Notes under the pieces: model-generated
Told to the model about the DNA's origin: nothing
Databases searched by the model: none
Seen by the model: the letters and a program-made list of their open reading frames with translations, nothing else
Translations under genes and position numbers: made by a program
DNA from: a virus
Lineage: Duplodnaviria; Caudoviricetes
Reading direction: 5' to 3' (one strand)
Length of the DNA: 64,000 nucleotides
IMG/VR virus record: IMGVR_UViG_3300020465_001196
In this document: piece after piece, positions 47,742 to 52,216 of the stretch
How positions within the stretch are numbered: position 1 is the first letter of the stretch
Layout of the letters: every line of letters starts with the position of its first letter

Positions 47742-47869
47742 TAGTAACTCGCATATACTACAAATAAGATACAAGCAATGAATCCTGCAATCAATACATG
47801 ATTACCAAGATTCCACCAACTTGTACCTACTGTGTGTTTGTTTTTTGGATCTATAAATTTATTTTGCAT
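47741..47869 (-). CDS. 42-aa membrane peptide MQNKFIDPKNKHTVGTSWWNLGNHVLIAGFIACILFVVYASY
   Basis: TAATG coupling at both ends; missed by the ORF track. Confidence 0.6.
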   Translation of the reverse strand: MQNKFIDPKNKHTVGTSWWNLGNHVLIAGFIACILFVVYASY

Positions 47870-48195
47870 TAATCTCTTGTTTGTAAATGTTCTGGTATTG
47901 TATCAACACAAAAGAATGTTAAATTTTCTTCTTCAACTGCTCTCATTACTTTACAATCTTTACCAGTTACTTTTGATATAATATGATCAGTTGTTGTTTT
48001 TTCACCATTTAATGTTTGTGCAATATCTACACCAGTTTTTGCAATAGTAATTGTTTTATAAGTTTGATAAGAACCAGATGCTGTTGCTGTTGCACTACTT
48101 CCAACTAAAAAACTAGGGGCCGCACATCCTTGTAATAATACAAGTACACTTATCCATAACAACATTAAAAATAATATTGGTCTGTCATTCATCAT
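47869..48195 (-). CDS. Lipoprotein
   Basis: Signal peptide with lipobox LQGC. Confidence 0.65.
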   Translation of the reverse strand: MMNDRPILFLMLLWISVLVLLQGCAAPSFLVGSSATATASGSYQTYKTITIAKTGVDIAQTLNGEKTTTDHIISKVTGKDCKVMRAVEEENLTFFCVDTIPEHLQTRD

Positions 48196-48638
48196 ACTTT
48201 TCTACCTGCTGTCTTTAAATCTTCTCTTGCTACTACCATATAAGGTCCTTTATTATATGCTGGTGCAATTGAATATTGTCTACTTACTTCTAATCTTTCT
48301 TTTTCTTCACGCCAATTTCTTGTAGCACCACCACCAATTTTATTACTCAACTTAGGTTCTTGTTTGGCAGGAGTGGAAGGATTCGAACCCTCACTTACGG
48401 TTTTGGAGACCGACGTGCTAACCGTTGACACTACACTCCTAGTTGTAGTAACGGGTGGCTTGTATTTGCCACGTCTATAATCAATATAATCTTGCTCTGT
48501 CATTTGTGGTAACCCTTTGCTTTTTAAAAATTTATTTTGTTCTTTGAACCCTTGCATATAATATTCAGTTTTCTTAGGTTTAGTCTTTCGCTTCTTTGTA
48601 TTCAGAGTGGTTAAGCCACGTTCTAAGTGCATTGTCAT
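48192..48638 (-). CDS. Conserved phage protein (C-terminal IAPAYNKGPY motif) carrying an in-frame tRNA
   Basis: Phage-type N-terminus MHL..GLTT.NTKKRK and C-terminus APAYNKG; own promoter; ATGA-coupled to the downstream gene. Confidence 0.7.
   Translation of the reverse strand: MTMHLERGLTTLNTKKRKTKPKKTEYYMQGFKEQNKFLKSKGLPQMTEQDYIDYRRGKYKPPVTTTRSVVSTVSTSVSKTVSEGSNPSTPAKQEPKLSNKIGGGATRNWREEKERLEVSRQYSIAPAYNKGPYMVVAREDLKTAGRKV
48365..48440 (-). tRNA. trnW: tRNA-Trp(CCA), nested inside the CDS on the same strand
   Basis: AGGAGTG/CACTCCT acceptor stem, GTGT/GCAC D-stem, loop CT-CCA-AA, GAGGG-TTCGAAT-CCTTC T-arm, G73, encoded CCA; 76 nt. Confidence 0.88.
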
Positions 48639-48644
48639 AGTATT

Positions 48645-48672
48645 AATATAACACATATTAGTCTTTTGTCAA
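48645..48672 (-). promoter_or_regulatory. Sigma70-type promoter, leaderless mRNA
   Basis: TTGACA-N16-TATATT with TGn extension; ATG at +7. Confidence 0.7.
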
Positions 48673-52056: not shown

Positions 52057-52060
52057 ACAG

Positions 52061-52216
52061 TTAGCATAACTCATAAGCAGGATTCTGTTCATTGCTATCA
52101 TTTACCTTTGCGTCCTACCCTGTGTCCCGGCAGTTGTTGACACTCTACTTGGACTTGCACATATCTGCCTGTGTCCTGACTTTCCTCTGTTTCCAGCGAT
52201 AGCCCGGTTATGCTAA
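52061..52216 (-). ncRNA. rnpB: Miniature RNase P RNA (156 nt)
   Basis: GAGGAAAGUCAGGA and AACAGAAUCCUGCUUA form P4; P1 UUAGCAUAAC/GUUAUGCUAA; P2 GCUAUC/GAUAGC; P3 CUG-GAAA-CAG; GGCAG/CUGCC helix; GGUAGG in the P15 region. Confidence 0.9.

Follow-up and report, generated by a model that had tools for sequence, protein, structure and literature searches.

Can the codons of a protein also be, base for base, a functional tRNA gene on the same strand? The question is raised by a locus in a 64,000-nt stretch of DNA from a virus of the Caudoviricetes (IMG/VR record IMGVR_UViG_3300020465_001196), referred to below as the window, in which a complete tRNA-Trp gene lies inside an open reading frame. Phage tRNA genes are assumed to be intergenic, and annotation pipelines that meet an overlap between a tRNA and an ORF usually keep only one of them. 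The comparative evidence set out below leads us to consider it probable, at roughly 0.7, that this is a genuine dual-coding locus, in which the linker codons of a two-part phage protein double as a functional tRNA-Trp gene. The features concerned are collected in Table 1.

Table 1. Features at the nested tRNA-Trp locus and its surroundings (positions in the window).
Feature	Position	Strand	Details
tRNA-Trp(CCA)	48365..48440	(-)	76 nt, CCA encoded; ARAGORN and Rfam RF00005
Host ORF	48192..48638	(-)	148 aa + stop; ORF list, family alignments, profile search
N-terminal basic helical part	48441-48638 (codons)	(-)	Part of host ORF
C-terminal AYNKG part	48195-48364	(-)	Part of host ORF
Sigma-70-type promoter (sequence match)	48645..48672	(-)	TTGACA, 16-nt spacer, TATATT, TG extension
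Stem-loop	48657..48686	(-)	3' arm overlaps -35 hexamer; -10.5 kcal/mol, z = -2.9
ATGA stop/start overlap	48192..48195	(-)	TGA 48194-48192, next ATG 48195-48193
Downstream gene	47869..48195	(-)	Lipoprotein-like signal (LLQGC)
Mini RNase P RNA (probable)	52058..52215	(-)	~158 nt; RNaseP_bact_a 71 bits, E ~1e-21

The nested tRNA-Trp looks like a working gene. An earlier note, made from the sequence alone, had described a canonical tRNA-Trp(CCA) with G73 and an encoded CCA, and two programs agree with it: ARAGORN calls the gene at the same place, as one of four tRNAs in the window (the others being Gly, Ala and Thr), and Rfam RF00005 gives it 58.4 bits, where the gathering score is 29. The acceptor, anticodon and T stems are paired, and the seven-nucleotide anticodon loop, CTCCAAA, contains U33 and the anticodon CCA. 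The identity elements of tRNA-Trp are G73 and A1-U72, as in E. coli; the window tRNA has the A1-U72 pair and G73 as its discriminator. The same bases are also codons of the surrounding ORF, as the note had said. They stand in phase 0, the frame is open throughout, and they encode residues 67-91 of the host protein, reading RSVVSTVSTSVSKTVSEGSNPSTPA. Each of the other two frames contains two stops.

Where does the host protein begin, and what lies on either side of the tRNA? The longest reading of the ORF (48192..48656, minus strand) comprises 154 aa and is open through the tRNA-Trp. The true start is likely to be the ATG at 48638 (MTMHLERGLTT), since it matches the N-terminus of the family and sits 6 nt after the -10 hexamer of a promoter; this gives a protein of 148 aa. 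Beyond the tRNA, the ORF continues for 56 conserved codons. No in-frame ATG or Shine-Dalgarno-like site was found between the tRNA-Trp and the conserved C-terminal part, so this part could be produced only by ribosomes that read through the tRNA. In an AlphaFold2 model based on an alignment of 48 sequences (mean pLDDT 68), the N-terminal part has confident helices at residues 25-40 and 48-55, and the small C-terminal part consists of a helix (109-119) and two strands. Between them, pLDDT drops below 50 at residues 67-86, inside a low-confidence stretch from about 60 to 105. The residues encoded by the tRNA thus fall in a predicted disordered linker with conserved parts on both sides, which agrees with the suggestion of the earlier note that the tRNA occupies the linker of the protein.

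The function of the protein offers few clues. Searches of Pfam, PHROGs, NCBIfam and PADLOC gave no informative match to a known function or fold, and neither did PDB sequence profiles, Foldseek against BFVD, or the ESM Atlas. PHROG 4593 matches the C-terminal part only (E ~0.003), and the Pfam family DUF7216 matches only the homologue in phage Mosig, at 17.5 bits against a cut-off of 27; both are families without known function. Conservation alone suggests that the host protein is important.

Is the nesting of a tRNA in this protein peculiar to one locus? A tblastn search of phage genomes found homologues in Methylophilales phage Melnitz and in the Pelagibacter phages Mosig and HTVC008M, three members of the Kyanoviridae (T4-like marine myophages). 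Both flanks of the window tRNA are homologous to single ORFs in these phages, which bears out the view that they belong to a conserved phage protein. The homologue in Mosig and HTVC008M is a single ORF of 125-128 aa without a tRNA; that of Melnitz (gene 124) holds a tRNA-Trp(CCA) at the corresponding place. The paper describing Melnitz lists this tRNA as gene 125, reports that no tRNA of host or phage could be aligned with it, and is silent on any overlap between tRNA and ORF (PMC9004378).

The family was sampled from Melnitz, IMG/VR and marine metagenome contigs, with the C-terminal motif as bait, so that broken genes would still have been caught. A complete tRNA on the same strand lies within 54 of 192 distinct family ORFs (~28%), and about 72% of the members have no tRNA at all. 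Four isotypes are represented, namely Trp(CCA) in 19 distinct ORFs, Thr(TGT) in 19, Asp(GTC) in 15 and Pro(TGG) in one. The nested tRNAs occupy all three codon phases, and in one Asp lineage the tRNA is placed closer to the N-terminus. Together they span at least seven combinations of isotype, phase and site, all of them open and in frame; a tRNA that breaks or shifts the frame was found in none of the 54 nested cases among the 192 ORFs examined. The family itself is large: searching its profile against 1.84 billion representative proteins returned 574 clusters at E <= 0.001, which puts its size at no fewer than 574 clusters at 50% identity. The earlier note had treated the arrangement as a single locus, with a tRNA-derived linker that might be confined to one clade. 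The homologues show a wider pattern, with Trp, Thr, Asp or Pro tRNAs in the linker of other members too, and nesting recurs across the family. As a separate observation, a tRNA-Arg(TCT) lies 16 nt past the stop codon of a family member without a nested tRNA (L221, 1221-1298).

The tRNA usually ends a few codons before a conserved (S)NKIGGG/GGTKP motif. In the carriers of tRNA-Thr, the GGT of GGTKP is encoded by the tRNA's own 3' end, GGGGGCACCA. At the other edge, the first codons of the window tRNA (48423-48440) read RSVV, and comparison with L010, L011, L029 and L039 shows RS(V/R/L)(Y/Q/V) at this site in tRNA-less relatives. The ends of the tRNA seem to mimic residues at the edges of the linker (RSVV; GGT of tRNA-Thr). 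The sequence RSVVST in L039 was considered as a remnant of a tRNA 5' end and rejected, as its codons differ (AGG TCT GTG GTA AGC ACA).

Have the tRNAs been inherited together with the protein, or have they come and gone? Members of the "MGSIIYTYQRSK" subclade have almost the same flanks in DNA, and between shared boundaries they carry a plain linker of 66 nt, a tRNA-Pro or, in two different phases, a tRNA-Asp. Elsewhere in the family, a member with a tRNA-Thr (L071) is sister to one with no tRNA (L051). A tree made from the flanks only, which has about 107 columns and is weakly resolved, requires at least 12 changes between presence and absence, at least nine of which are forced by well-supported branches. 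We infer that the linker is an exchangeable cassette, most likely swapped by homologous recombination in the conserved flanks. The idea that tRNA-less linkers are decayed tRNAs found no support: ARAGORN with lowered thresholds gave only scattered calls in them, mostly on the opposite strand.

The record nearest to the window, G001, is a fragment of 32 kb that lacks tRNAs, and the genome used for comparison was G002 (host gene L004; IMGVR_UViG_3300020477_000990), the nearest relative that holds the host gene. G002 has 328,149 bp with direct terminal repeats and is rated 100% complete. Because its closest relative is a complete genome of this length, the window phage probably belongs to the jumbo phages, even though pelagimyophages of 140 kb have similar genes. 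There are 15 tRNAs in G002, and the nested one is the only tRNA-Trp. No other tRNA lies within a long ORF, either in G002 or in the window (Gly, Ala, Thr), and around the non-nested tRNAs of the two at most 16 open codons run on both sides. A partial overlap is seen at a tRNA-Asn of G002 (808-883 of L257, G002:C1:309700-311400), where an ORF with 94 or more open codons stops within the 5' part of the tRNA.

How is the host gene expressed? The earlier note had proposed that it has its own leaderless promoter, and at the level of sequence both consensus and geometry fit: a promoter scan found 11 of 12 consensus matches, and ATG 48638 follows the end of the -10 hexamer by 6 nt. A promoter layout of this kind is found within 12 nt of the ATG in 53 of 188 family members, most often at 6-8 nt, which suggests that the family gene as a rule comes first in an early transcript with no leader or almost none. 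Some other family members are coupled to an upstream ORF. In many family members, among them L004, L011, L013, L051, L071 and L081, the start lies 5-8 nt past a consensus -10 and has no Shine-Dalgarno sequence, as expected of leaderless mRNAs. The stem-loop over the -35 hexamer is identical in G002, and we take it to recall the promoter-early stem-loop cassettes of T4-type phages.

At its other end, the host ORF is joined to the next gene by the ATGA overlap that the earlier note had pointed out, and -3 overlaps with small exported or lipoprotein-like ORFs are common in relatives. A conserved downstream partner gene was considered and rejected: many of the partners are small ORFs with a signal peptide or lipobox, though their sequences are unrelated between clades. 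In marine metatranscriptome run X7, a 499-nt contig that may derive from DNA covers 47996-48491 and crosses both borders of the tRNA. A contig from a second library ends at 48363, 2 nt beyond the 3' end of the tRNA, although contigs cannot show RNA ends. In runs X7 and X16, a contig over the tRNA and the C-terminal part (48116-48491) has a depth of 25 and contigs over the N-terminal part or upstream genes have depths of 0.7-4, all of these depth figures being unreliable.

Might a phage-encoded RNase P act on the nested tRNA? A phage RNase P RNA had been placed 3.6 kb away by the earlier note. A match is indeed present there, and its score of 71 bits is below the Rfam gathering threshold of 100, at which the window has no RNase P RNA match. 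The match spans the full RNaseP_bact_a model with about 158 positions of the specificity domain deleted, keeps both strands of P4, and sits directly upstream of the tRNA-Ala. G002 has a counterpart that scores 73.6 bits (L245, G002:C1:327918-328075). Taken together, the mini RNase P RNA element is probably real.

The earlier note had reasoned that excision would make tRNA and protein output mutually exclusive for each transcript, and had suggested a processing-controlled switch. The presence of the RNase P-like element in the window and in G002 could be taken to favour a dedicated processing switch, in which ribosome traffic and/or the phage mini RNase P RNA would set the rate of tRNA excision, and this rate would deliberately set the levels of the protein and of the ATGA-coupled gene against the supply of tRNA. 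No match to an RNase P RNA is present in Melnitz, Mosig or HTVC008M, yet Melnitz nests a tRNA-Trp; thus, phage RNase P is not needed for nesting, and its role as a general partner of nested tRNAs was rejected. Excision must destroy the mRNA, according to established RNase P biology, and a model of the same kind was proposed for selB-selC (Mukai 2021; PMC8124441). Many members of the family have their stop coupled to the start of the following gene. Some 72% of members carry no tRNA that could be excised. Moreover, isotypes swap freely between near-identical proteins, so the protein does not need such control, and no regulatory element was found. A dedicated switch is therefore an unlikely explanation of the locus.

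Is the tRNA itself under selection as a tRNA? Among 28 distinct nested tRNA sequences, the acceptor stem is fully paired in all. Of the 17 positions in the acceptor, anticodon and T stems, 7-10 show two-sided compensatory changes in each isotype; for Trp, with nine distinct sequences, the figure is 10 of 17, and pairing holds in 98% of cells. Identity features follow the isotype, with A1-U72 and G73 in nested Trp, G1-C72, C2-G71 and A73 in nested Thr, and G73 as the discriminator in nested Asp. CCA is encoded in every nested tRNA.

Some nested tRNAs have unusual features. The tRNA-Trp of the Melnitz type (L001, 2599-2672, and others) has A8 together with U14, and a Melnitz subgroup also has an A31-C39 mismatch. 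A T28-T42 mismatch is present in several nested tRNA-Thr. The lowest-scoring tRNA of Melnitz is the nested tRNA-Trp, at 50.8 bits. Dual coding may therefore come at a cost to tRNA quality, seen in the Melnitz type as A8, A31-C39 and the low score.

Such features raise the alternative that the element is never matured into a working tRNA and has a cis-acting or decoy role instead; it might, for instance, be a tRNA-shaped structure in the mRNA that binds host factors, absorbs anticodon nucleases or stabilises the transcript. The noncanonical positions (A8 and A31-C39 in the Melnitz type, T28-T42 in several Thr) would fit an element of this kind, as would the scores of nested tRNAs, which are below those of free-standing tRNAs, but A8 co-occurs with U14, which suggests that a tertiary pair is preserved. 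Isotype-specific conservation of anticodon loops, discriminators, first acceptor pairs and CCA across deep divergence also speaks against it, as does the nested gene being the only tRNA-Trp among the 15 tRNAs of G002. We give this alternative a slim chance.

Is the protein reading under selection as well? In the clades that bear tRNAs, the protein part preceding the tRNA has a median dN/dS of 0.09-0.44, and the part following it one of 0.15-0.18. Between the window and G002, the values are 0.14 for the N-terminal part and 0.15 for the C-terminal part. Both flanks are thus under purifying selection.

Across 30 free-standing phage tRNAs, stop-free combinations of tRNA and frame number 24 of 90 (27%), and ten of the 30 have no open frame at all. 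The frame used by a nested tRNA is usually the only open frame of that tRNA. The bases U8-A9-G10 are near-universal in tRNAs and spell TAG. In nested tRNAs, positions 8-10 are TAG in 27 of 28 distinct ORFs in phases 0 and 1 (the remaining one, a Thr, has TGG), AAG in all 12 tabulated phase-2 Trp ORFs, and TCG in the phase-2 Asp lineage. The phase-2 Trp and phase-2 Asp lineages are exactly those in which TAG at 8-10 would be an in-frame stop. Base 14 of the phase-2 Trp tRNAs is T, and the tertiary pair U8:A14 appears to have been swapped to A8:U14 in them. For tRNA-Thr(TGT), phase 1 is closed by TAA at 36-38 and phase 2 by TAG at 8-10; phase 0 is the one used by all 19 nested Thr tRNAs. The intergenic tRNA-Thr of the window has stops in all three frames.

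Cloverleaf covariation, purifying selection on the flanks and the avoidance of in-frame stops together indicate that selection acts on both the tRNA and the protein reading. The claim of the earlier note that one sequence encodes both products is upheld by these comparative signatures. That the long ORF is not one protein, its open frame being a by-product or its C-terminal part arising by internal initiation, has a slimmer chance still: nothing direct favours it beyond the protein being small and uncharacterised, all 54 nested cases are in frame and stop-free in at least seven independent combinations against a null of 27% open frames, TAG is lost only in lineages that would read it as a stop, the stretch after the tRNA offers neither an in-frame ATG nor a Shine-Dalgarno-like site, and tRNA-less homologues are single ORFs.

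How would a dual-coding linker, the reading that we prefer, work during infection and over evolution? The early, probably leaderless gene would encode a small protein with a basic helical N-terminal part, a disordered linker and an AYNKG C-terminal part. Ribosomes reading through the primary transcript would make the full 148-aa protein and allow coupled translation of the downstream gene. Alternatively, folding of the transcript, a 5' cut by RNase P and the action of 3' nucleases up to the encoded CCA would give mature tRNA-Trp. Excision of the tRNA would leave a non-stop 5' fragment and a 3' fragment without a start, and would silence the coupled downstream gene. On a longer timescale, the linker is a hot spot at which Trp, Thr, Asp and Pro cassettes are gained, lost and swapped, and the only inserts to persist are those that are in frame and free of stops. 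No dedicated switch is assumed.

Is there a precedent for such an arrangement? The closest published case of nesting in a host ORF is that of selC, which encodes tRNA-Sec, in the selB ORF of Alphaproteobacteria, described there as the first nested tRNA in an ORF of bacteria (Mukai 2021; PMC8124441). As in the window, an entire tRNA lies in frame and on the same strand within an ORF whose stop overlaps the next start. The model put forward for selB-selC is likewise one of alternative expression, in which processing of the tRNA leaves a non-stop mRNA, and that study is also bioinformatic work only (PMC8124441). The two systems differ in the place of the tRNA, as selC forms a C-terminal extension of selB with nothing conserved after it, whereas here the tRNA is an internal linker. 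Furthermore, selC is one specific tRNA, functionally tied to selB and found in cellular genomes. In contrast, the family described here exchanges four unrelated isotypes, shows no evident link between protein and isotype, and is carried by phages.

Among phages, overlaps of a lesser kind have been reported. The segB gene of T4 overlaps a tRNA-Arg (PMC2330249). Like segB and the T5 genes hegC, hegD and T5.069, the genes considered here are phage genes co-transcribed with tRNAs, an arrangement in which tRNA maturation is presumed to cleave the mRNA and so reduce expression. In the T4 and T5 cases, however, overlap with the 5' part of the tRNA is confined to the final codons or the stop of the ORF, and there is no read-through and no conserved part after it. 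The tRNA-Asn of G002 shows this type of partial overlap, whereas the host ORF of the window continues for 56 codons. T5 was also considered as a precedent for full nesting and set aside, since its record has only partial 3'-end overlaps of 6-24 nt.

Mitochondrial genomes provide a further parallel. A tRNA-Lys inside cox1 of the Armadillidium vulgare mitochondrion is cited in PMC8124441, and a tRNA-Pro-like gene lies inside the octocoral mtMutS (PMC11353228). As here, a tRNA or tRNA-like element is located fully inside a coding region on the same strand and has been discussed as dual coding. The mitochondrial cases differ in that they concern organelle genomes, reduced tRNAs and single lineages, with no exchange of isotypes. 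A search of the literature found no description of full in-frame nesting of a tRNA in phages.

Does the protein family do more than tolerate its tRNAs? It is conceivable, though doubtful, that the family is a dedicated carrier and exchange platform, with the coding flanks serving as recombination arms and the early leaderless promoter as an expression unit. If this were true, marine T4-like and jumbo phages would trade tRNA cassettes via one gene. Translation of the host ORF would then gate the maturation of the tRNA, or the protein would act on the tRNA precursor, and nesting would be functional, beyond mere tolerance.

A widespread protein family of marine phages repeatedly hosts complete tRNAs in frame, and this offers a natural system in which ribosomes and RNase P would compete for one RNA. 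One carrier, Melnitz, is in culture on OM43 strain H5P1, which makes these questions directly testable. The swap to A8:U14 and the loss of TAG at positions 8-10 illustrate the limits within which a tRNA can bend to translatability. Finally, the exchange of cassettes in the linker points to a route by which phages may acquire and swap tRNAs.
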